Below, piece after piece: positions 1 through 11,425 of a stretch of DNA of 11,425 nt. Below the pieces are notes generated by a model. The model saw only the letters and a program-made list of their open reading frames with translations. It did not search any database and was not told the origin of the DNA. Made by a program: the position numbers and the translations under genes. The DNA is from an archaeon (GTDB lineage Archaea > Iainarchaeota > Iainarchaeia > Iainarchaeales > 1-14-0-10-31-34): assembly GCA_024277355.1 (NCBI GenBank), contig JAJRVL010000010.1, positions 1 to 11,425 on the forward strand, written 5' to 3'. The first letter of the stretch is position 1. The number at the start of each line of letters is the position of its first letter.

Positions 1-141
1 TCATTATTTTTAAGTTAAACTGATATAATTAATACAATACTTAAATAAAAAAAGTGGTATTTTGTTTGAATTTATAGCTTTTCTGATAACTTTAACAATT
101 CCTGGTTATTTGTTGGTTGAAAAGCATTTTTTTGGTTTGGA
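1..141. repeat. Terminal direct overlap, copy 1 (identical to 11285-11425); circular-closure signature
   Basis: Base-by-base comparison shows 1-141 equals 11285-11425 with no mismatch, and identity runs to the last base of the window. The repeat covers the GT2 start codon, the 57-bp intergenic region and the first 80 nt of the GT-C gene, so it is the same locus read twice rather than a discrete element. Confidence 0.97.
5..61. promoter_or_regulatory. Divergent intergenic control region between the GT2 gene (minus, ATG at 4-2 = 11288-11286) and the GT-C gene (plus, TTG at 62)
   Basis: 57 bp, almost pure A/T. TATA-like strings are tatttttaag (5-14), tataattaat (24-33) and ttaaataaaaa (41-51). 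A 7-bp perfect inverted repeat, tttaagt (9-15) / acttaaa (39-45), extends to 9/11 matches. GTGGT lies 4-8 nt upstream of TTG 62 and could be an SD-like element. No TSS data. Confidence 0.4.
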
Positions 142-1498
142 GAAATGGGTTTTGTCTGTTTTTTTGTCTTTGTCTGTTACTTCTTTTTTTTATTATTTCA
201 TGGTTTCTTTTTTTGGCATAACAAAAGAAATAATTTATTTTTATGCTTTAATTTTGTTAATTGTTTTTTTTGTGTTAAAAAAACCAAATTTTAAACGAGT
301 GTTTTATTCAATAAAAGAAATTAAGTTACCAAGCAAAACAGTTAAAAAAGAAAATTTATTTGAATTAACAGGAATTTTTATTTTAGTTTTTTGTTTTTCT
401 TTAATTGTTTTTTTTATTTATGCAGGGCAGCCTTATAGTTTTGATGATTCTGCTTATCATTTGCCTATTATTAATGATTTTGCTGATGATGGCGAAAAAA
501 CTTTTTTTGTTGAACCAAAAAATGTTTATGAATTAAGAAGCAATCAGTTTCCTTTGTTGTTTGAATCTTTTGCAGGAGTATCAAAGTTCTTTATTGGAGG
601 AAACTTATTTCATTTTATTTCTTTTTTTTCATTTGTTTTATCTTTATTTTTAGTTTATCTTATTAGTAAACTAACAGGCTATAATGAATTCTTTTCTTTG
701 GTTATTTTTGGTTTAACTCAATCTGTTCTAATTTTAACTCGTTATTTTAGTGCTGAAACTTTTCTGCCACTGCTTTTTTTGGGGGCAGTTTTTTTTGTTT
801 TAAAGTTTATTAAAACAGAAAAACTGTTTTTTATTTTTGTTTCTGGTTTTTTGGCTGGTTTAATGTTTTTATCTAAGTTTACTGGTTTTATTTTTTTTGC
901 TGGCTTATTTTTGTTTTTGCTGTATAAAAGAAAATTTAAAGAAAGTGTTTTATTTGCTTTAATTTTTGTTTTGATTTCTTCAGTTTTTTTTGTTTCTCAT
1001 CTAAATGTTTCTTTTAATGAAAATACTATGGGGGCTTATGGAAAAATAGTTGCTGAAAATATTTGGGATAAACCCTCTTTGAATTTTTTCAAAATTACTG
1101 AAATTTTATTTTATTTTTTTTCAAATAACTATTACTTTTTTTTGATTCCTTTACTTTTTGTTTTAGGTTTTTTTGGTCTGAAAGAAAAAGAATTAGATTT
1201 TTTTGTTTTAATGAACATTACTTTTGTTTTGTTTTTGTTTGTAAATGTTGTGAATCAAATGGTTCCCACTTACACAGGTTTTCCGCGTTATTTTCTTCCA
1301 ATTTATTCTTTATTGTGTATTTTTGCAGGCATCCAATTGAAAAAAGCATTTTTTTTCAGAAATAAGTTAATTAAAGTTTTATTAGGATTGATTTTTATTT
1401 TTTTGATTCTTTTTTCTTCTTTTTTTATTTTGGGGGTGTTCAACCATCAAGCAGGAAAAACTGTTTTTTATTCTGATAAACTGATTCCAAATAATTAA
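62..1498 (+). CDS. GT-C fold integral-membrane glycosyltransferase (ArnT / PMT_2 / GT39-GT83-like), membrane domain; the frame continues past an in-frame TAA at 1496-1498
   Basis: 478 aa and extremely hydrophobic, with roughly a dozen predicted TM segments. The acidic first-loop motif GQPYSFDDSAYHLPIINDF is typical of polyprenyl-phosphate-sugar dependent GT-C enzymes. No WWDYG motif, so not AglB/STT3. TTG start; the frame is closed upstream by TAA at 26-28. Confidence 0.75.
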   Translation: MFEFIAFLITLTIPGYLLVEKHFFGLEKWVLSVFLSLSVTSFFYYFMVSFFGITKEIIYFYALILLIVFFVLKKPNFKRVFYSIKEIKLPSKTVKKENLFELTGIFILVFCFSLIVFFIYAGQPYSFDDSAYHLPIINDFADDGEKTFFVEPKNVYELRSNQFPLLFESFAGVSKFFIGGNLFHFISFFSFVLSLFLVYLISKLTGYNEFFSLVIFGLTQSVLILTRYFSAETFLPLLFLGAVFFVLKFIKTEKLFFIFVSGFLAGLMFLSKFTGFIFFAGLFLFLLYKRKFKESVLFALIFVLISSVFFVSHLNVSFNENTMGAYGKIVAENIWDKPSLNFFKITEILFYFFSNNYYFFLIPLLFVLGFFGLKEKELDFFVLMNITFVLFLFVNVVNQMVPTYTGFPRYFLPIYSLLCIFAGIQLKKAFFFRNKLIKVLLGLIFIFLILFSSFFILGVFNHQAGKTVFYSDKLIPNN

Positions 1499-2105: not shown

Positions 2106-3506
2106 ATGTGTTCTATTTCAGGCGTGATTTCAAAGAAGAAAGAAAATGTATTTGATCATTTAATGGAATTATTGTTTGATTTAAAGCATAGAGGCAATGA
2201 TTCTTTTGGTGTTTCAATAAATAATAAAACAGTTACAGCTAAAACTATTTCTTTGTTAAGAGAAAAAGAAATTAAAGGTTTATCTGGAATAGCACATTCA
2301 AGATTAGAAATTACAGGAAAACAAACTCAACCTTTATCTTTTGGAAATTCTTCTGTTGTTTTTAACGGTCAAATTTATAATTTTTTTGAGTTTTCTGATT
2401 CTGATTCAGATGCAGTTTTTGTAAAAGAATTTTTTGAAAAAGAATTAAAGAAAAATTCAGTTGAATCTGCAGTAAAGAAATTTATGCAAAAAGCAAATGG
2501 ACAGTATTCTATTGCATTATTTCATAAAAAAAAGTTTTTTGTTTTCAGGGATTTATTTGGAATAAAACCTGTTTGGTTCGGCGAAAATGATTCTTTTATT
2601 GCTTTTTCTTCTGAACCTAAACCATTAAAAAAAATGAATATTAATTTTCCTTTGCCTTTGCTTCCGGGAAACTTATTAATTATGTCTGAAAAAGGAATTG
2701 AAGTAAGAAAAGTTTTTTCTTTTGATTTAATGAAAAAGAAATGTAAAACAAAAGCATCTTTTTTGGATTTAAAAAAAGCTTTTTTTGATTCTATTTATTT
2801 GCGTACCAGAAACTTAGATAAAGCAGGAGTATTGTTTTCAGGGGGAATTGATTCAAGTTTAATTGCTAAAACTGTTTCTTCTGTTGTTCCAAAAACTGAA
2901 TTATTTGCTGTTGGAATGGAAGATTCTCATGATATTGATTCAGCAGTTAAAGCTGCAGAAGAATTAAACTTAAAACTGCATTTAAGAATTTTAAAAAAAG
3001 ATGAATTAAAGGATTATTCATTGAAAAGTTTAAGTTTGCTTTCTTTTTTTGATGAAATGCAATTGCAGTTATCTGTTCCTGAATATGCTGTGTGTGAGTT
3101 AGCCAAAAAGCAGGGAATGAAAGTAATATTTTCAGGGCAAGGTTCAGATGAAATTTTTGCAGGTTATCATAGTTATTCTAAAGCTCTTTCTTCAAAAAAA
3201 AATATTTCAGATGAAATTTGGCATTCAATTCTTAATTTATGGAGCAGAAACCTTTACAGAGAAGATTTAATTTCAATGAATTTTTCTTTAGAACATAGAA
3301 TTCCTTTTTTGGATAAAGAATTAATTTGTACTGCAATGAAAATTCCTGTTAAACAGAAAATTTTTAATGAACAAGATAAATTAAGAAAAAGAATTTTAAG
3401 AAAACTTGCTTTGGATTTAGGTTTATCTGAAAGCATTGCATTAAAACCAAAAAAAGCTTTGCAGTATGGAACAGGAGTGTCAAAACATATAAGCAAGTTT
3501 TTTTAA
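2106..3506 (+). CDS. asnB: Asparagine synthase (glutamine-hydrolysing) family amidotransferase: class II Ntn glutaminase domain plus PP-loop ATP pyrophosphatase domain
   Basis: N-terminal MCSISGV gives Cys2 as the nucleophile. Other motifs: KHRGNDSFG, HSRLEITG, NGQIYNF, PP-loop LFSGGIDSSLIA, FSGQGSDEIFAGY, EHRIPFLD. At 466 aa it is shorter than E. coli AsnB. The symbol denotes family only; the substrate may not be aspartate (see findings). Confidence 0.9.
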   Translation: MCSISGVISKKKENVFDHLMELLFDLKHRGNDSFGVSINNKTVTAKTISLLREKEIKGLSGIAHSRLEITGKQTQPLSFGNSSVVFNGQIYNFFEFSDSDSDAVFVKEFFEKELKKNSVESAVKKFMQKANGQYSIALFHKKKFFVFRDLFGIKPVWFGENDSFIAFSSEPKPLKKMNINFPLPLLPGNLLIMSEKGIEVRKVFSFDLMKKKCKTKASFLDLKKAFFDSIYLRTRNLDKAGVLFSGGIDSSLIAKTVSSVVPKTELFAVGMEDSHDIDSAVKAAEELNLKLHLRILKKDELKDYSLKSLSLLSFFDEMQLQLSVPEYAVCELAKKQGMKVIFSGQGSDEIFAGYHSYSKALSSKKNISDEIWHSILNLWSRNLYREDLISMNFSLEHRIPFLDKELICTAMKIPVKQKIFNEQDKLRKRILRKLALDLGLSESIALKPKKALQYGTGVSKHISKFF

Positions 3507-4069
3507 ATTATAAAATAGTTTACATCCTGTAATCCTGACTGTTTGTCTATTATCATATAATTGCAGTCAGTGGTTGTGCTGTTATAATTTGCATCAATTA
3601 TTTTTTCAAATATAATATTTTTTTCATATAATGCAAGTGAATTTAAATCTAATCCAATTTCAAGTTTATGTCTGCATTGTAAATCCATGCTTATATTTAT
3701 GTCATAAATATTTAATTCTCCCACTGAATGAGGCAGGGTTATTGGACCTAATTTAGTTACATTAAAGTTTTCTATACTGCAGTCTGAATTTGTTGAAGCT
3801 AATACATTTTGGTCATAATAATAAATATTTGAATCTGGATTAAATAATCCTGTAAGGCAGTCGGCTGAATAAGCTGAATCAATTAGTGCATCTGCTGAAG
3901 CTTTATCTAATAATCTTTGAGTATTTTGCCATTGTTTTACAGTAAAAGAAAAACTTTCTTTTTGCGGGATTAATGCCTGGCTTTTGTTAAATGAATTAAC
4001 TGTAAATAATGCTGTTGATAAAACAATTAATGCTATTACTCAGATTAATACACTGTAATACCCCTTCAT
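3503..4069 (-). pseudogene. Fourth class III signal peptide (type IV pilin-like) gene, interrupted by in-frame TGA at 4042-4040 (codon 10)
   Basis: My own reverse-complement translation from ATG 4069-4067 gives MKGYYSVLI*VIALIVLSTALFTVNSFNKSQALIPQKESFSFTVKQWQNTQRLLDKASADALIDSAYSADCLTG...HSVGELNIYD. This is in frame with the tracked ORF 3503-3724. The ATG overlaps the upstream gene's TGA stop (ATGA). The hydrophobic stretch spanning the TGA looks like a pilin N-terminal helix. Confidence 0.6.
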
Positions 4070-4404
4070 CTTAAACTCCTTTTACCCATGCAGTATTTTT
4101 TTTCAATTAATTCTCCTTTGCCGTAAATTAGCTGGTAGTCCATATTGTAATCATATAAAATAAAGCATTCTGCATAATCAAAATTATTGAAATCTGAATT
4201 GCCTGACTGCAAGCCAATATCTTCTGCTGTTTTTCCCTGATAAAATCCTGTTATTGCCTGATTTGGAAGTTCTTGTTTAATAAAAGAAATATTTGCTTCA
4301 CTTCCTTCTTCTATTGAATAAGGAAAAGTCATAATTAATGTAATAATTATTACTGTTGTTAATCCAATTAATGCATCTGTACTAAACATAAATCCTTTAG
4401 TCAT
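4066..4404 (-). CDS. Class III signal peptide / type IV pilin-like protein (112 aa)
   Basis: N-terminus is MTKG|FMFSTDALIGLTTVIIITLIMTF: a short basic n-region and KG before a roughly 20-residue hydrophobic helix. The start overlaps the upstream gene end by 8 nt (ATGACTAA). Two Cys, one N-x-S/T sequon. Confidence 0.6.
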   Translation of the reverse strand: MTKGFMFSTDALIGLTTVIIITLIMTFPYSIEEGSEANISFIKQELPNQAITGFYQGKTAEDIGLQSGNSDFNNFDYAECFILYDYNMDYQLIYGKGELIEKKYCMGKRSLR

Positions 4405-5038
4405 TTTTCCACACCAAAAATTTTATTGTTGCAGGATACATAAAACAGTTTGCTGTATTTCCTGTAATGCAGTATTCCATTTCATTTTTATCTATTGTTA
4501 ATGTTTTTCCGTTTTCGGTATCTGAATGAATCATTACATTTAAGTCTATTGCATAAATATTTTTTGCTAATGCTGGAGGAGAAATTTCACAGTCTGATAA
4601 CAGTGTTGCGTTTTCATCTGGATTTAATCTTCCGCCTAATACTTTAATATAACAAGAATAATCTTTAGGCAACCCTAAAAATTCTTTTAATATTGGCTTA
4701 AATGTTCTGTGATTATTTCCATATTTATCCCATGTTTTGCAGTCGGCTTCACTTCCCCCGCAGTCAGATAAATTTAATGCAAATTCCGGAATGCAGTTGC
4801 TTGCATAAGAAATTATTTTGTTTTTATCTCTTATATCAACTAACTCGCAGATAATTCTTGGATTATTTACCATTAAAACTGAAGCAGTTTTTCCTGTTAT
4901 TTGTGTTTCATCTTTTAATTGTTTGTCTTTGAAATTATAGTTTTCTATTTCGCTTAACTGCATAACTAAACCTATTGCTAAAACAACCAAAACTAATGAC
5001 ATTATGAAATCAAGTGATACTAATTGTCCTTTTTTCAT
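4397..5038 (-). CDS. Class III signal peptide / archaeal type IV pilin-like protein (213 aa), cysteine-rich ectodomain
   Basis: N-terminus is MKKG|QLVSLDFIMSLVLVVLAIGLV. It matches the archaeal prepilin pattern (K/R)G followed by Q-x-S-x-(D/E)-(F/L) and a hydrophobic helix (Class_III signal / DUF361-like). Eight Cys. The start overlaps the upstream stop (ATGA). Confidence 0.75.
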   Translation of the reverse strand: MKKGQLVSLDFIMSLVLVVLAIGLVMQLSEIENYNFKDKQLKDETQITGKTASVLMVNNPRIICELVDIRDKNKIISYASNCIPEFALNLSDCGGSEADCKTWDKYGNNHRTFKPILKEFLGLPKDYSCYIKVLGGRLNPDENATLLSDCEISPPALAKNIYAIDLNVMIHSDTENGKTLTIDKNEMEYCITGNTANCFMYPATIKFLVWKND

Positions 5039-5478
5039 GTTGTTTCACCTAATATTTCTTTGTTTAAGTCTATTGTCATTCCACAGAAATAATTCAGGCT
5101 TGTTGTTGCAGTAAAATTAAAGTTTATGTCTTTTTGGACTGCTACTTCATTTAAGTCAGTTGAATAATGGCTTATTCTGATAAAAGGAGTTGTACTTCTA
5201 TTTAGTGTTATGTTGCAGTCTTGTCCTCCTCTTTTATCTGAATCAAAAATAAATGGAACTTTATAATTAATGCTATAATTGCTGTCTGTTTCATCAAATA
5301 CTTTTGCTTGATTAATTAATTCAAGTAAATCGTTTGCAATATTTTCTTGTTGTGCTCTTATTCCTGTTGTTCTTTCACTTAAAGTTAATTCGCCTGTAAA
5401 AGTCATAAATACGTTTCCTAAAAGTATTGCTGCAATGACTGTAAGCATTAAATCCAAACTAATTTGTCCTTTTTTCAT
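5035..5478 (-). CDS. Class III signal peptide / archaeal type IV pilin-like protein, first gene of the operon
   Basis: I prefer ATG 5478-5476, giving MKKG|QISLDLMLTVIAAILLG. This is paralogous to the next gene's MKKGQLVSLDF, and 15 nt at the 5' end (atgaaaaaaggacaa) are identical in both genes. The tracked TTG at 5499 would add the hydrophobic MYSYLLI before the basic n-region, which is atypical. Two Cys, four N-x-S/T sequons. Confidence 0.75.
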   Translation of the reverse strand: MKKGQISLDLMLTVIAAILLGNVFMTFTGELTLSERTTGIRAQQENIANDLLELINQAKVFDETDSNYSINYKVPFIFDSDKRGGQDCNITLNRSTTPFIRISHYSTDLNEVAVQKDINFNFTATTSLNYFCGMTIDLNKEILGETT

Positions 5479-5517
5479 AATTAATAGATAAGAATACAAT
5501 TCAAGAATATTTAAACC
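5479..5517 (-). promoter_or_regulatory. Candidate promoter of the pilin-like operon
   Basis: Minus-strand tttaaata (plus coordinates 5508-5515) is centred about 33 nt upstream of ATG 5478. That spacing is compatible with an archaeal TATA box and a very short 5' UTR. It lies in the 39-nt gap after the gpmI stop. Confidence 0.4.
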
Positions 5518-7137: not shown

Positions 7138-7503
7138 TCATTCAATTATTTCTATTGTTATTTCTTTTCCTGTTTCATCAAATGATTTAATATTATCTAA
7201 ATTAAAAGGCCAACAAATTATTAAGTGTATTTTTCCTAAAACAGAGAAAACATTTAAGTCTGCTGAAGAAGGATTGTTGTTTGGGGATGGGTGTGAATGG
7301 ATTGTTCCAATAATTTTTGAGTCAAACGGAATTAAGTCTGTTCTGATTGAAGAAAAATTTTTACCATAAACTGCCGGCAATACTACTAATTCATCTACTT
7401 CTTCTTTTTCATTTTTTCCTAACATTGAAATGAATTCATTTGGATAAACTTTTCTTGAAGCCATTAAAATTGATTCCAAAACACTTTTTTTTATTTTATG
7501 CAT
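7138..7503 (-). CDS. Stand-alone JAB1/MPN/Mov34 (JAMM) zinc metalloprotease, minimal archaeal type (121 aa)
   Basis: The JAMM motif is complete: upstream Glu in YPNEF, then GTIHSHPSPNNNPSSADL (H-x-H-x7-S-x2-D). The start overlaps the upstream gene end by 8 nt (ATGCATAA). Ends with TGA. Confidence 0.85.
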   Translation of the reverse strand: MHKIKKSVLESILMASRKVYPNEFISMLGKNEKEEVDELVVLPAVYGKNFSSIRTDLIPFDSKIIGTIHSHPSPNNNPSSADLNVFSVLGKIHLIICWPFNLDNIKSFDETGKEITIEIIE

Positions 7504-8474: not shown

Positions 8475-9287
8475 ATGGAAAAGATAAAAGAAAGAGCATC
8501 TTTTAGCTGTTCTGTTTTTGCCGAAAACTGGAAATCATTAGAAGAATATCTTCTTTTTTTAAAGGAAATTTTTGCATATGATTTTGCAGCAAATAAAATT
8601 TCTAAAGATTCAACAGTATTAGAGCTTGGTTTTGGAGAAGGTTTTGGAACAAAAATGCTTGCAAAAAAAGCAAAAAAAGTTTTTGCATTAGATGTAGACG
8701 AAAAAGCATTTAATCATGCAAAACAAAAATATTCTTCTGAAAAAATACTTTTTAGTTTATATAACGGAAAAAAAATTCCTTTTGAAGATAACTATTTTGA
8801 TGCAGTTGTTTCTTTACAGGTAATTGAACATATCAAAGACGATTTTAATTTTGTTAATGAAATTTACCGAGTAACAAAAAAAAACGCAGTAGTAATTATT
8901 ACGACGCCTAATAGAAAAATAAGACTTAAAGAAAACAGCAAACCCTGGAATGAATTTCATTGCAAAGAATATTCAGAAAAAGAGCTTGAAAATTTGTTTA
9001 ATAATTTCAGTTCAGTAAATATTTTTGGAGTGTTTGCAAGTAAAGAAATTATGAAAACAGAATTAAACAGAATTAAAAAAGCAGTTTTTATGGCTTCATT
9101 AGATCCCTTTAAATTAAGAAAATTTTTTCCATTTTATTTAAAAAATACTCTAAAAAAAATAATAAAAAAAGTATTTGCAAATGAAAAAAGAGAATTTGAC
9201 CAGAAAAAATTCAGTCATAAAGATTTTTTTATTTCAGAAAAAAATGCAGATAACTCTCTTGACTTACTAGCAGTGTGTAGAAAATAA
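8475..9287 (+). CDS. Class I SAM-dependent methyltransferase (Methyltransf_11/23-like)
   Basis: Motif I VLELGFGEGFGTKMLA, the acidic residue after beta-2 in VFALDVDEKA, and motif IV region FDAVVSLQVIEHI. 270 aa, with a C-terminal Lys-rich extension. Confidence 0.85.
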   Translation: MEKIKERASFSCSVFAENWKSLEEYLLFLKEIFAYDFAANKISKDSTVLELGFGEGFGTKMLAKKAKKVFALDVDEKAFNHAKQKYSSEKILFSLYNGKKIPFEDNYFDAVVSLQVIEHIKDDFNFVNEIYRVTKKNAVVIITTPNRKIRLKENSKPWNEFHCKEYSEKELENLFNNFSSVNIFGVFASKEIMKTELNRIKKAVFMASLDPFKLRKFFPFYLKNTLKKIIKKVFANEKREFDQKKFSHKDFFISEKNADNSLDLLAVCRK

Positions 9288-9289
9288 AA
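9280..9289 (-). terminator. Candidate oligo-T terminator (TTTTATTTT on the minus strand) right after the GT4 TGA stop, inside the 3' end of the convergent methyltransferase gene
   Basis: Plus strag 9281-9289 reads aaaataaaa, which is ttttatttt on the minus strand and starts 1 nt after the stop at 9292-9290. The assignment is weak because such runs are common in this composition. Confidence 0.25.
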
Positions 9290-10399
9290 TCAGTTTATTT
9301 CATTTAATCTTTCTTTTAATTCTTTTCCAATTTTTTCTATAATAAATTTTTCTTTAAATAAATTATATCCATTTAAAGCTATTCTTTCTCTTAAAACTTT
9401 ATTTTTTTTAAGTTCAATTATAGTGTTAGCAAGACTTTTTTCACCATTCATTCTGCAAAAAAATATGTTTTCTTTATGGCTAAACACCTCTTTCACTGCT
9501 TTAGATTCTCTTGTTATTACAGGTTTTTTCATTGCAATACATTGAAATACTTTGTTTGGAATTACATTTGAAGCTTTTTCTGTTTTCCCAAAAATTCCCA
9601 AACAGACATCAAATCTTGCAATTTTTCCTGGAAGTTCTTCTAATTTAACTGGTTTAAAAAATTTAATATTTGAAATATTGTTTTGTTTTGCTAAATTACT
9701 TATTTCCACATAAAGCTGTCCTTTTCCTATTATTTCAAACTCGATGTTTTCTTTTTCAAGTATTTTTACTGCTTTAATAATATATTTTATTCCATGTAAT
9801 GGAATAAAAGTTCCATAAAATCCTACTTTAAATTTTTTGTTTTCTTTTGGTTTTTTTGGGTAAAAAATTGTTTCATCTGCCCCAACAAAAACTTTAATGA
9901 ATTTATTTTTGTTTAATCCAAATTTGTTTGTAAAATAATTTATATGTGATTCAGTATCAAGAATTATTTTGTTGCTTAATTTTAATCCAAATTTTTCCAG
10001 ATAAAATACTATTTTTGCGGTAATTGAATTTTCTTTTATTACTTTTCTGTCTTCAATTAAAGTGTTGTAAATAGAAACTAAAGGATTAATTACGAGTTTT
10101 TTTCTTGAAAAAAAAGAAATTATTTTAGCTAAAAAAACATCAGGGAAAGAAGGAAACCCAACTAAAATTAAATCGTAGTTTTTTATTTTAACAGATTTTA
10201 TAATTAATTTTAAATAAGCTGAAAAATAATCAATTATTAAACTAAGATTTTCTATTATAAAATTTTTTGAGTATTTTTTTCTTTTTTTTATTGGAACATT
10301 AATTTCAATTACTTTAACATCATTTTTTTTTAGCCCTTCAATAAAAATCTTGTTTCTTGGATAATTTTTTTCATATGTACCAAAATAAAGTATTTTCAT
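9290..10399 (-). CDS. GT-B fold glycosyltransferase, group 1 / GT4-like
   Basis: 369 aa. The N-terminal MKILYFGTYEKNYPRN and central VGFYGTFIPLHGIKYIIKA resemble the Glyco_trans_4 and Glycos_transf_1 architecture. The C-terminal FDVCLGIFGKTEKASNVIPNKVFQCIAMKKPVIT corresponds to the nucleotide-sugar binding E-x7-E region, here degenerate. The ATG lies 4 nt after the GT2 stop. Confidence 0.75.
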   Translation of the reverse strand: MKILYFGTYEKNYPRNKIFIEGLKKNDVKVIEINVPIKKRKKYSKNFIIENLSLIIDYFSAYLKLIIKSVKIKNYDLILVGFPSFPDVFLAKIISFFSRKKLVINPLVSIYNTLIEDRKVIKENSITAKIVFYLEKFGLKLSNKIILDTESHINYFTNKFGLNKNKFIKVFVGADETIFYPKKPKENKKFKVGFYGTFIPLHGIKYIIKAVKILEKENIEFEIIGKGQLYVEISNLAKQNNISNIKFFKPVKLEELPGKIARFDVCLGIFGKTEKASNVIPNKVFQCIAMKKPVITRESKAVKEVFSHKENIFFCRMNGEKSLANTIIELKKNKVLRERIALNGYNLFKEKFIIEKIGKELKERLNEIN

Positions 10400-10403
10400 T
10401 TTT

Positions 10404-11288
10404 TCACTTTTTCATGTCAGCCAGAAAACCAAATAAAATAATTTGTAATCCGGTTACAATTAAAATCATTGTTAAAATCATTAAGGCAATATGCCCTTCT
10501 ATTCCTGAAGTTAAATGCAAAAACACTAAATATAACCCCGTCAAAAAACCTAATCCAAATAAGCTTCCTCCAATTAAACCAAAAAACTTTAATGGAGCAT
10601 AATCTCTGTAAACTCTTAAAATGTTAAGCCATGCTTTAATTGCATAATCAAAAGGATTAGACATTAACCTGCTTTCTCCTTGAGTTCTTTTTCTGAAAGT
10701 GCATGGAATTTCTTTTACTTTAAATTTTTCTTTTGTTGTTCTGATTATTTGTTCTTGTGTGTAAGTGTAATTTGCGATTATATCTAATTTTGCTATTTTT
10801 TGGTTAAATGCTCTAAATCCTGTTTGTGCATCAGTTATTTGCTGGTGAGTTATGTTTGAAATCACTTTAGAGAAAGCTTTGTTGCCTAATTTTTTGATTA
10901 AAGGCATTTCTTCTATTTTTCCTGCAAATCTGCTTGCTAAAACTAAATCATTTCCTTTTCTTACTTCTTTTATCATTAAAGGAATTATTTTTGGGTCATA
11001 TTGTCCGTCTGCGTCAACATGAATTATTATTTCAGGATTTAATTTTAATGCCTGTTTCATTTCTGTTCTAAAAGTTTCAGCTAAACCTGAATTTCTTGGA
11101 TGAGAAAAAACAATTGCATTTTCTTTTTTTGCTTCTATTACAGTATTATCTTTACTGCCGTCATCTAATACAAGAATTTTATATTCTTCATTTTTCAGAT
11201 ATTGTTTTAATTCTCTTATCACTGAAGAAATTGTTTTTTCTTCATTGAATGCAGGAATAGTTATTACAATTATTTTTTTTCCCCTCAT
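10404..11288 (-). CDS. GT2 family polyprenyl-phosphate sugar synthase-like glycosyltransferase (DPM1 / GtrB / ArnC-like) with two C-terminal TM helices
   Basis: Motifs IIVITIPAFNEEKTI, ILVLDDGSKDNT, HVDADGQYDP (DxD) and QTGFRAF. Two C-terminal TM helices follow: LKFFGLIGGSLFGLGFLTGLYLVFLHL and HIALMILTMILIVTGLQIILFGFLADM. This GT-A domain plus C-terminal TM pair is the GtrB/ArnC architecture. The start codon lies inside the terminal overlap. Confidence 0.9.
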   Translation of the reverse strand: MRGKKIIVITIPAFNEEKTISSVIRELKQYLKNEEYKILVLDDGSKDNTVIEAKKENAIVFSHPRNSGLAETFRTEMKQALKLNPEIIIHVDADGQYDPKIIPLMIKEVRKGNDLVLASRFAGKIEEMPLIKKLGNKAFSKVISNITHQQITDAQTGFRAFNQKIAKLDIIANYTYTQEQIIRTTKEKFKVKEIPCTFRKRTQGESRLMSNPFDYAIKAWLNILRVYRDYAPLKFFGLIGGSLFGLGFLTGLYLVFLHLTSGIEGHIALMILTMILIVTGLQIILFGFLADMKK

Positions 11289-11425
11289 TATTTTTAAGTT
11301 AAACTGATATAATTAATACAATACTTAAATAAAAAAAGTGGTATTTTGTTTGAATTTATAGCTTTTCTGATAACTTTAACAATTCCTGGTTATTTGTTGG
11401 TTGAAAAGCATTTTTTTGGTTTGGA
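11285..11425. repeat. Terminal direct overlap, copy 2 (identical to 1-141)
   Basis: See copy 1. It contains the duplicated intergenic region (11289-11345) and a redundant copy of codons 1-26 of the GT-C gene (11346-11425), which is not an independent gene. Confidence 0.97.

Follow-up and report, generated by a model that had tools for sequence, protein, structure and literature searches.

Organization of the four-gene operon

We studied an 11,425-base contig (JAJRVL010000010.1, C8 of our numbering; its whole length is the window below) from a 1.13-Mb genome of the archaeal order Iainarchaeales, assembled in 11 contigs (96% complete, ~28% guanine plus cytosine (GC)), and in particular four successive minus-strand open reading frames (ORFs) that lie head to tail and code for type IV pilin-like proteins. 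We call these genes pil1 to pil4. The first gene of the operon, pil1 (5035–5478), encodes 147 amino acids (aa) and starts with MKKG↓QISLD, the arrow marking the putative cleavage site. It is followed by pil2 (4397–5038; 213 aa, MKKG↓QLVSLDF), which overlaps the pil1 stop by 4 nt (ATGA), by pil3 (4066–4404; 112 aa, MTKG↓FMFSTDA), which overlaps pil2 by 8 nt (ATGACTAA), and by the last gene, pil4 (3503–4069; 188 codons, MKG↓YYSVLI(TGA)VIAL), which overlaps pil3 by 4 nt (ATGA). An earlier note, made on this DNA from its letters alone, had described four overlapping genes; the ORF coordinates confirm its 4-, 8- and 4-nt overlaps, and the four N-termini and the first 15 nt common to pil1 and pil2 (ATGAAAAAAGGACAA) read as it had given them. 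The end of its span 3503–5499 needs correction: 3503 stands, while 5499 is the TTG of the longest ORF, and all pil1 orthologues begin at the M-x-K-G equivalent of the ATG at 5478. This arrangement is above what chance would yield, as the N-termini, the gene order pil1-pil2-pil3-pil4 and a spacing of -4/-8/-1 recur in ~44 loci from ~30 families of the same order.

Direct reading of the sequence also revealed a TATA-like box (TTTAAATA; 5508–5515, minus strand) 29 nt upstream of the pil1 ATG, within the 39-nt spacer that follows the iPGM gene; it is the putative promoter of the operon, which would then have a short leader or none. The three internal starts are each preceded, 5–9 nt ahead and on the same strand, by Shine-Dalgarno-like motifs, namely GGTGA (5045–5049) 6 nt upstream of the pil2 ATG, GGTG (4412–4415) ahead of pil3 and AGGAG (4076–4080) ahead of pil4, which would fit translational coupling of pil2, pil3 and pil4. 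At its far end pil4 converges with the plus-strand gene asnB; the TAA stops of the two overlap in the palindrome TTAA (3503–3506), with no intergenic terminator between the two genes.

The tenth codon of pil4 (4040–4042, minus strand) is an in-frame TGA. It had appeared as a question mark in the N-terminus MKG↓YYSVLI? proposed earlier; the residues around it are as given there, but under translation table 11 pil4 is not an intact ORF, and the next in-frame ATG, GTG or TTG is a GTG at 3724 that would leave an ORF of only 73 aa. The other 178 codons are open and 51–61% identical to the same-genus orthologues, all four of which have glycine (GGA or GGT) at codon 10. TGA is the regular stop of pil1 and pil3 and ends 264 of the 1024 long ORFs of the genome. 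The glycine codons of the congeners and the TGA stops of pil1 and pil3 exclude recoding or selenocysteine at this position. Because the congeners have glycine and TGA terminates genes here, the codon most probably represents a private nonsense change, a single G-to-T substitution that is either very recent or an artefact of the consensus or the population.

The N-terminal signal and the conservation of the families

All four proteins have a short charged leader of 3–5 residues ending in K/R-G/A, directly before a hydrophobic stretch with an uncharged run of at least 22 residues. K or R at -2 and G or A at -1 are found in at least 97% of the 32–44 orthologues of each family. Beyond this common layout each family has its own signature. 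The pil1 family (36 orthologues) is typified by K/R-G↓Q-I-S-[FL]-D, with Gln at +1 in 35 and Asp at +5 in 34 sequences and Ser at +3, and the pil2 family (44 orthologues) by K-G↓Q-I-F-S-L-D-F, with Gln at +1 in 41 and Asp at +6 in every sequence. In the pil3 family (43 loci scored for N-terminal patterns, 41 sequences in its alignment, A3) the pattern is K-G↓F-I-F-[ST]-x-D-A, with Phe at +1 and Asp at +6 in 37 of 43, while pil4 (32–34 orthologues) shows K-G↓[FLI]-Y-[ST]-A and no conserved acidic residue. The class III signal is reportedly characterized by a QxSxE motif, with Gln at +1 and Glu at +5, described by Szabo and colleagues in 2007; the FlaFind pattern would presumably pass only pil1 and pil2. 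Those pilins of the genome that do match the Class_IIIsignal model (PF04021) share the layout KG↓Q..E/D. The motifs seen across the orthologues, together with the predicted folds described below, support the earlier assignment of these genes as type IV pilin-like with class III signal peptides, and the precursors are probably cleaved after the K/R-G, presumably by an EppA-like peptidase.

The pil2 gene is present in 48 of 61 related genomes, nearly always once, and this includes genomes in one or two contigs; its profile collects 560 representative clusters at E≤1e-3 among 1.84 billion, and the commonest label among the Atlas neighbours of pil1 to pil3 is Candidatus Iainarchaeota. Homology among the four families is confined to the N-terminus: pil1 and pil2 are homologous over ~60 N-terminal residues (hhalign, 97%) and the other pairs over ~25. 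Cysteine counts are even and conserved in all four families (most commonly 2, 6, 2 and 4 in pil1 to pil4, those of pil2 including C64 and C82), as would be expected for disulfide-bonded extracellular heads. Orthologues of pil4 range from 135 to 424 aa, and one of them contains a Laminin_G_3 domain (E 2e-19). The long forms of 323–424 aa were observed at L062:1493–2764, L075:5814–6878 and L044:6472–7440; at another locus (L082:194–1306) the gene in the pil3 position encodes 371 aa and is possibly a pil3-pil4 fusion. Hypervariable ectodomains, for which a comparison had been suggested, were not seen: within the genus pil1 is 61–66%, pil2 66–73% and pil3 67–82% identical, with pil4 as given above, which makes the pilins only moderately faster-evolving than the neighbouring housekeeping genes asnB, iPGM and JAB (69–77%).

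Predicted structures of pil2 and pil4

An AlphaFold2 model of pil2, built on a 44-sequence alignment, reached a predicted local distance difference test (pLDDT) score of 91.6 and consists of a helix from residue 4 to 58 and a β-rich head. The AlphaFold model of pil4, for which Gly was put in place of the stop and a 34-sequence alignment was used (pLDDT 94.1), has a helix spanning residues 2–68, a second helix and a five-stranded sheet. Monomer prediction, which had been suggested as a check of the pilin assignment, thus yields in both cases a long N-terminal helix of 55–68 residues and a β head, and in these models the pilin architecture is clear.

Comparisons of the models gave different pictures for the two proteins. 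An exhaustive VIA-align search with pil2 recovered helix-only matches, archaellins among them, and heads of PAS/CHASE-type sensors (Z 5.2–5.7). With pil4, the same program, run against 48,161 PDB chains, placed GspK of the GspK-I-J tip complex second overall and first among pilin-type proteins (Z 7.6), and XcpV/W, EpsI/J, PilX (Z 5.4) and PilA5 were among the only 27 chains with Z≥5. Shape searches of the ESM Atlas likewise drew pil4 to TadE/Tad clusters (PF07811, TadE) with template-modelling (TM) scores of 0.48/0.63, and PF07811 had no pil4 match by sequence. For pil2 they returned clusters of archaeal hypothetical proteins and a DUF7288 cluster (TM 0.56–0.59), the likeness to a DUF7288 cluster being scored at TM 0.56/0.67. 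We followed this lead to the haloarchaeal families DUF7287 and DUF7288 and did not find it borne out by sequence: pil2 has no match above the Pfam cut-off, a genome scan gave none at the window, the matches in 6 and 4 of the 44 pil2 orthologues, respectively, are weak (best E 0.014 and 0.0052), and no mention of either family was found in the literature.

Pilus machinery encoded in the genome

The window contains no ATPase, platform or A24 peptidase gene, as the earlier note had stated, and the pilins do depend on machinery encoded outside it. A search of the source genome for these components, which that note had proposed, recovered six T2SSE ATPases, nine T2SSF matches (mostly adjacent pairs), two Peptidase_A24 proteins and 12 matches to Class_IIIsignal. 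A complete pilus locus lies at the end of contig C2 that joins the window (C2:516–523 kb), on the same strand as pil1–4. Its ATPase has 571 aa, each of its two platform genes encodes a single T2SSF domain, and its five pilins are 47–59 aa long (KA↓Q..E.LL); an A24 peptidase of 377 aa that includes an Arc_PepC domain and another two pilin-like genes, with products of 169 and 119 aa, complete the locus. Among the NCBIfam models the best for this peptidase is EppA, over its full length, at a score far short of the equivalog cut-off. What defines 'system 1' (Epd type) of the archaeal type IV filaments, which has been reported in DPANN archaea, is a pair of platform genes, a peptidase of its own and pilins without heads (PMC13705601), and the C2 locus has all of these features: an ATPase, two platform genes, a dedicated class III peptidase and headless major pilins.

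In the order C11-window-C2, established below, this locus lies ~10–16 kb from pil1. The only genes in between are those for iPGM, the JAB protein and glycosylation, a second PMT_2-like gene with a small downstream ORF, an unassigned ORF of 186 aa and genes of a TctA-family transporter. The operon comes immediately after the core pilus locus in many relatives, and a long-form EppA-like A24 peptidase is found at most 20 kb from pil2 (median 6.4 kb) in 28 of the 32 genomes that have both genes on one contig; these genomes are related, so that this is a pattern and not a statistic. The short-form A24 peptidase lies at a median of 52 kb. We also noted that in 14 genomes a fairly constant 31–62 kb separates this short form (~270–300 aa) from pil2, which suggests that synteny is conserved over long distances in the order.

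A second pilin-like triad (165, 138 and 288 aa) was observed at C11:16703–18476, beside another ATPase/platform locus. Its first gene is a paralogue of pil2 (hhalign, 97% over 140 columns) and its second is pil3-like, with the same N-terminus as pil3; each pilus machine may thus have its own accessory set.

Chromosomal context of the window

The earlier note had taken the window for a circular element. Its ends do carry an exact terminal direct overlap of 141 nt, bases 1–141 recurring at 11285–11425, and its GC content is 25.6%, against ~28% in the rest of the genome. Both would suit an extrachromosomal circle of 11.3 kb that serves as a portable cartridge for pilins or adhesins and uses machinery encoded by its host. 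However, contig C11 ends in the same 141-mer, and window positions 108–238 are the head of contig C2 in reverse orientation, so that C2 starts inside the repeat. From there C2 continues into a 59%-identical paralogue of the first gene of the window, which encodes a PMT_2-like membrane glycosyltransferase, and then into a paralogue of the small ORF behind that gene. Exact matches delimit the repeat (1–238, plus strand) as an intergenic region together with the first 59 codons of the PMT_2-like gene; it is at least 238 bp long, with two entries (from C11 and from the window end) and two exits (to the window start and to C2). Because this repeat is shared by the window ends, the C11 tail and the C2 head, the circle is in all likelihood a false one, a loop in the assembly graph that, judging from these matches, arises from the duplicated 5' end of a glycosyltransferase gene. 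The two PMT_2-like genes, 59% identical overall, share at least 238 identical bp (window 1–238; C2:526337–526574), a stretch that could reflect gene conversion or a strain-level assembly chimera.

Of the two paths through the repeat, C11-window-C2 was chosen because synteny in four congeners decides between them. In these genomes the orthologues of the C2 head, a block from GT2 to asnB with all four pilin genes and the C11 tail follow in this order on one contig each, of up to 364 kb, and on this comparison contig C8 is best read as a chromosomal segment between C11 and C2. Direct flanking repeats of at least 238 bp do make an occasional loop-out by recombination physically possible, but the gene content is not that of an element. 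Replication, partition, integrase, relaxase and mobilisation genes are all lacking among the nine flanking ORFs of the window, which instead carries asnB, iPGM, a Prok-JAB protein, a flippase-like LPG_synthase_TM protein, a methyltransferase, two glycosyltransferases and a 77-aa ORF with no match. The genome has no other copy of iPGM, and the one further match of asnB, on C11, is weak and partial. The operon itself occupies one syntenic position and has a single copy throughout the order, one-contig genomes included. An autonomous element is therefore not what the contig ends and the synteny describe, and the fixed position of the operon and the complete pilus locus nearby tell against a portable, exchangeable cartridge.

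Two further observations concern the genes upstream of pil1. The 121-aa Prok-JAB (MPN) gene at 7138–7503 has counterparts ~0.4–2 kb upstream of pil1 in 9 of 10 scored loci from several families; the two are closest in L075, and in this genus iPGM lies between them. For the methyltransferase and GT1 at 8475–10399, tblastn found no counterpart at the equivalent site of the three same-genus contigs spanning the region, where ~1.9–4 kb of DNA is found instead (~4 kb in G002). This suggests that a variable islet for surface glycosylation separates the pilin operon from the core pilus locus.

Functional interpretation

Taken together, we interpret the operon as the chromosomal accessory or minor pilin set of an Epd/Tad-like type IV filament of 'system 1' in a small DPANN archaeon, a reading to which we assign a probability of roughly 0.7. 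The operon is composed of four unannotated protein families of a known kind of system. The signature of a minor pilin set, as derived from bacteria (PMC5207764), is 4–5 distinct pilin-like genes of which one lacks the acidic residue, is larger and stands at the 3' end, and this is what we find here; the earlier comparison of the coupled genes with major-plus-minor or minor pilin sets is thereby supported. In the mechanism that we propose, each precursor would insert into the membrane and be cut after the conserved K/R-G by the EppA-like A24 peptidase of the neighbouring locus. The mature N-terminal helices of the four proteins could then pack together, and the small complex so formed, seated on the two-gene platform and the ATPase, would prime and cap a filament of the 47–59-residue Flp-like pilins. 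As the candidate first subunit pil4 would sit on top, at the tip, with the Flp-like pilins polymerizing beneath it. We single out pil4 for this position because it is the last gene, lacks the conserved Asp, varies in size, has occasional lectin-type domains and shows a GspK/TadE-like fold.

Several results weigh against this interpretation. No curated model recognizes any of the four proteins: searches of Pfam and NCBIfam gave nothing, sequence profile searches of the PDB with the pilins gave nothing significant, and PF04021 matches none of the four at E≤10 (nor the window in a six-frame scan of the genome at E≤1), with one of the 36 pil1 orthologues matching it at E 0.003. Foldseek against the PDB had no significant match for the pil2 or the pil4 model, the head of pil2 has no solved pilin counterpart (its best VIA-align score, 5.7, being with a PAS/CHASE-type domain), and the GspK match of pil4 sits among generic helix-on-sheet folds of similar score. 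Furthermore, pil3 and pil4 lack Gln after the cut site and are perhaps no substrates for a peptidase of the EppA type, the reading frame of pil4 is broken in this assembly, and in a genome with six ATPases the set could serve another machine or several.

Non-filament functions deserve the most attention among the alternatives. Archaeal proteins outside filaments also use class III signals, for example the sugar-binding proteins of Sulfolobus (PMC13705601), and the resemblance of the pil2 head to ligand-binding PAS/CHASE-type domains, in the place of any pilin-specific head fold, would suit surface proteins that are anchored by a pilin signal and processed by an A24 peptidase and that form a short pseudopilus, a bindosome-like assembly or membrane-proximal parts of a machine. 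Nevertheless, the continuous helices, the Asp at +5/+6 in three of the four proteins and the GspK/TadE-like pil4 are features of packing in a filament core, and the tight linkage of the operon to Flp-like major pilins and assembly genes speaks for filaments, so that we regard this explanation as unlikely. That the four are ordinary Sec-dependent signal-anchor membrane proteins that merely resemble prepilins would explain why pilin models of Pfam and NCBIfam pass over them, but it is very improbable given the short leaders with a near-invariant K/R-G before the hydrophobic stretch throughout the orthologues, the family-specific residues conserved from +1 to +7, the A24 peptidase that adjoins the genes in most genomes and the layout shared with the PF04021-positive pilins. 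An extrachromosomal cartridge has, after the synteny described above, hardly any chance of being correct.

Comparison with known pilus systems

The closest parallel to an accessory pilin set of this kind is the Epd locus of Methanococcus maripaludis, with its peptidase EppA, the minor pilins EpdA/B/C/D and the short major pilin EpdE. Both have a dedicated long A24 peptidase (here one whose best NCBIfam model is EppA), a platform split in two genes, short headless major pilins and several more class III proteins in which Gln stands at +1 and an acidic residue at +5, not all of them encoded with the core genes (PMC13705601; PMC4858521; PMC3875500). At least five minor pilins were predicted in most Epd-type loci by Makarova et al., along with a dedicated EppA (PMC4858521), and minor pilins both inside and outside the locus are reported to be needed for piliation in M. 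maripaludis (PMC3875500). In contrast to the Epd system, pil1–4 show no detectable homology to the curated pilin models of Pfam and NCBIfam; the acidic residue of pil1–3 is Asp, standing at +6 in pil2 and pil3; pil3 and pil4 start with Phe/Tyr and not Gln; and the lineage is one of DPANN without a cultured member.

In bacteria, GspH-I-J-K of the type II secretion system and FimU-PilV-W-X of the type IVa pilus likewise consist of four different pilin-like proteins from one tightly packed operon, of which three keep the acidic residue of the N-terminal helix and one, the 3' gene, lacks it and is much larger than the major pilin (PMC5207764). Ng et al. recognize the first, tip subunit of bacterial systems by three marks: it alone among the minor pilins lacks Glu5, it exceeds the major pilin in size, and its gene stands at the 3' end of the cluster (PMC5207764). 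The present set differs from these in having no sequence homology to them and neither an outer membrane nor a secretin, and pil4 lacks the α-helical insertion of GspK.

TadE and TadF of the bacterial Tad (Flp) pilus offer a third comparison, for they too accompany Flp-like pilins (here of 47–59 aa), a TadA-like ATPase and a twin platform of the TadB/TadC kind. The differences are that there are four proteins here and not two and that a sequence search gave no match to PF07811; the pil4 and TadE folds, both of them predictions, are moderately alike. The Tad pilus is held to have evolved from the Epd pilus of archaea (Denise et al. 2019, as cited in PMC13705601). Conserved pilus loci of the CpaF/TadC type were described by Hamm et al. 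(2024) in tiny archaea that depend on hosts, namely cluster 2 DPANN and Undinarchaeota, and proposed to act in host contact (PMC11291902); that account highlights coiled-coil proteins, and mentions neither Iainarchaeota nor the four-gene set.

Implications

For four protein families that had no annotation, the present analysis proposes a concrete and testable role at the side of an Epd/Tad-like pilus, with pil4 as the likely tip. It also illustrates how a repeat can make a contig of a metagenome bin look 'circular' by closing a loop in the assembly, and with this the case for a mobile adhesin cassette falls away. DPANN archaea presumably rely on contact with other cells, for which type IV pili are the foremost candidates. 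Against this background we tentatively advance, as a conjecture somewhat less probable than its negation, that pil1–4 are the archaeal counterpart of the bacterial priming complex, a heterotetramer capped by the acid-less, GspK/TadE-like pil4 that would nucleate the Flp-like filament, would be conserved across DPANN of the Iainarchaeota type and would link the Epd and Tad pseudopilins. If this holds true, the lectin-type domains found on some pil4 proteins would make up a tip that recognizes hosts or surfaces.

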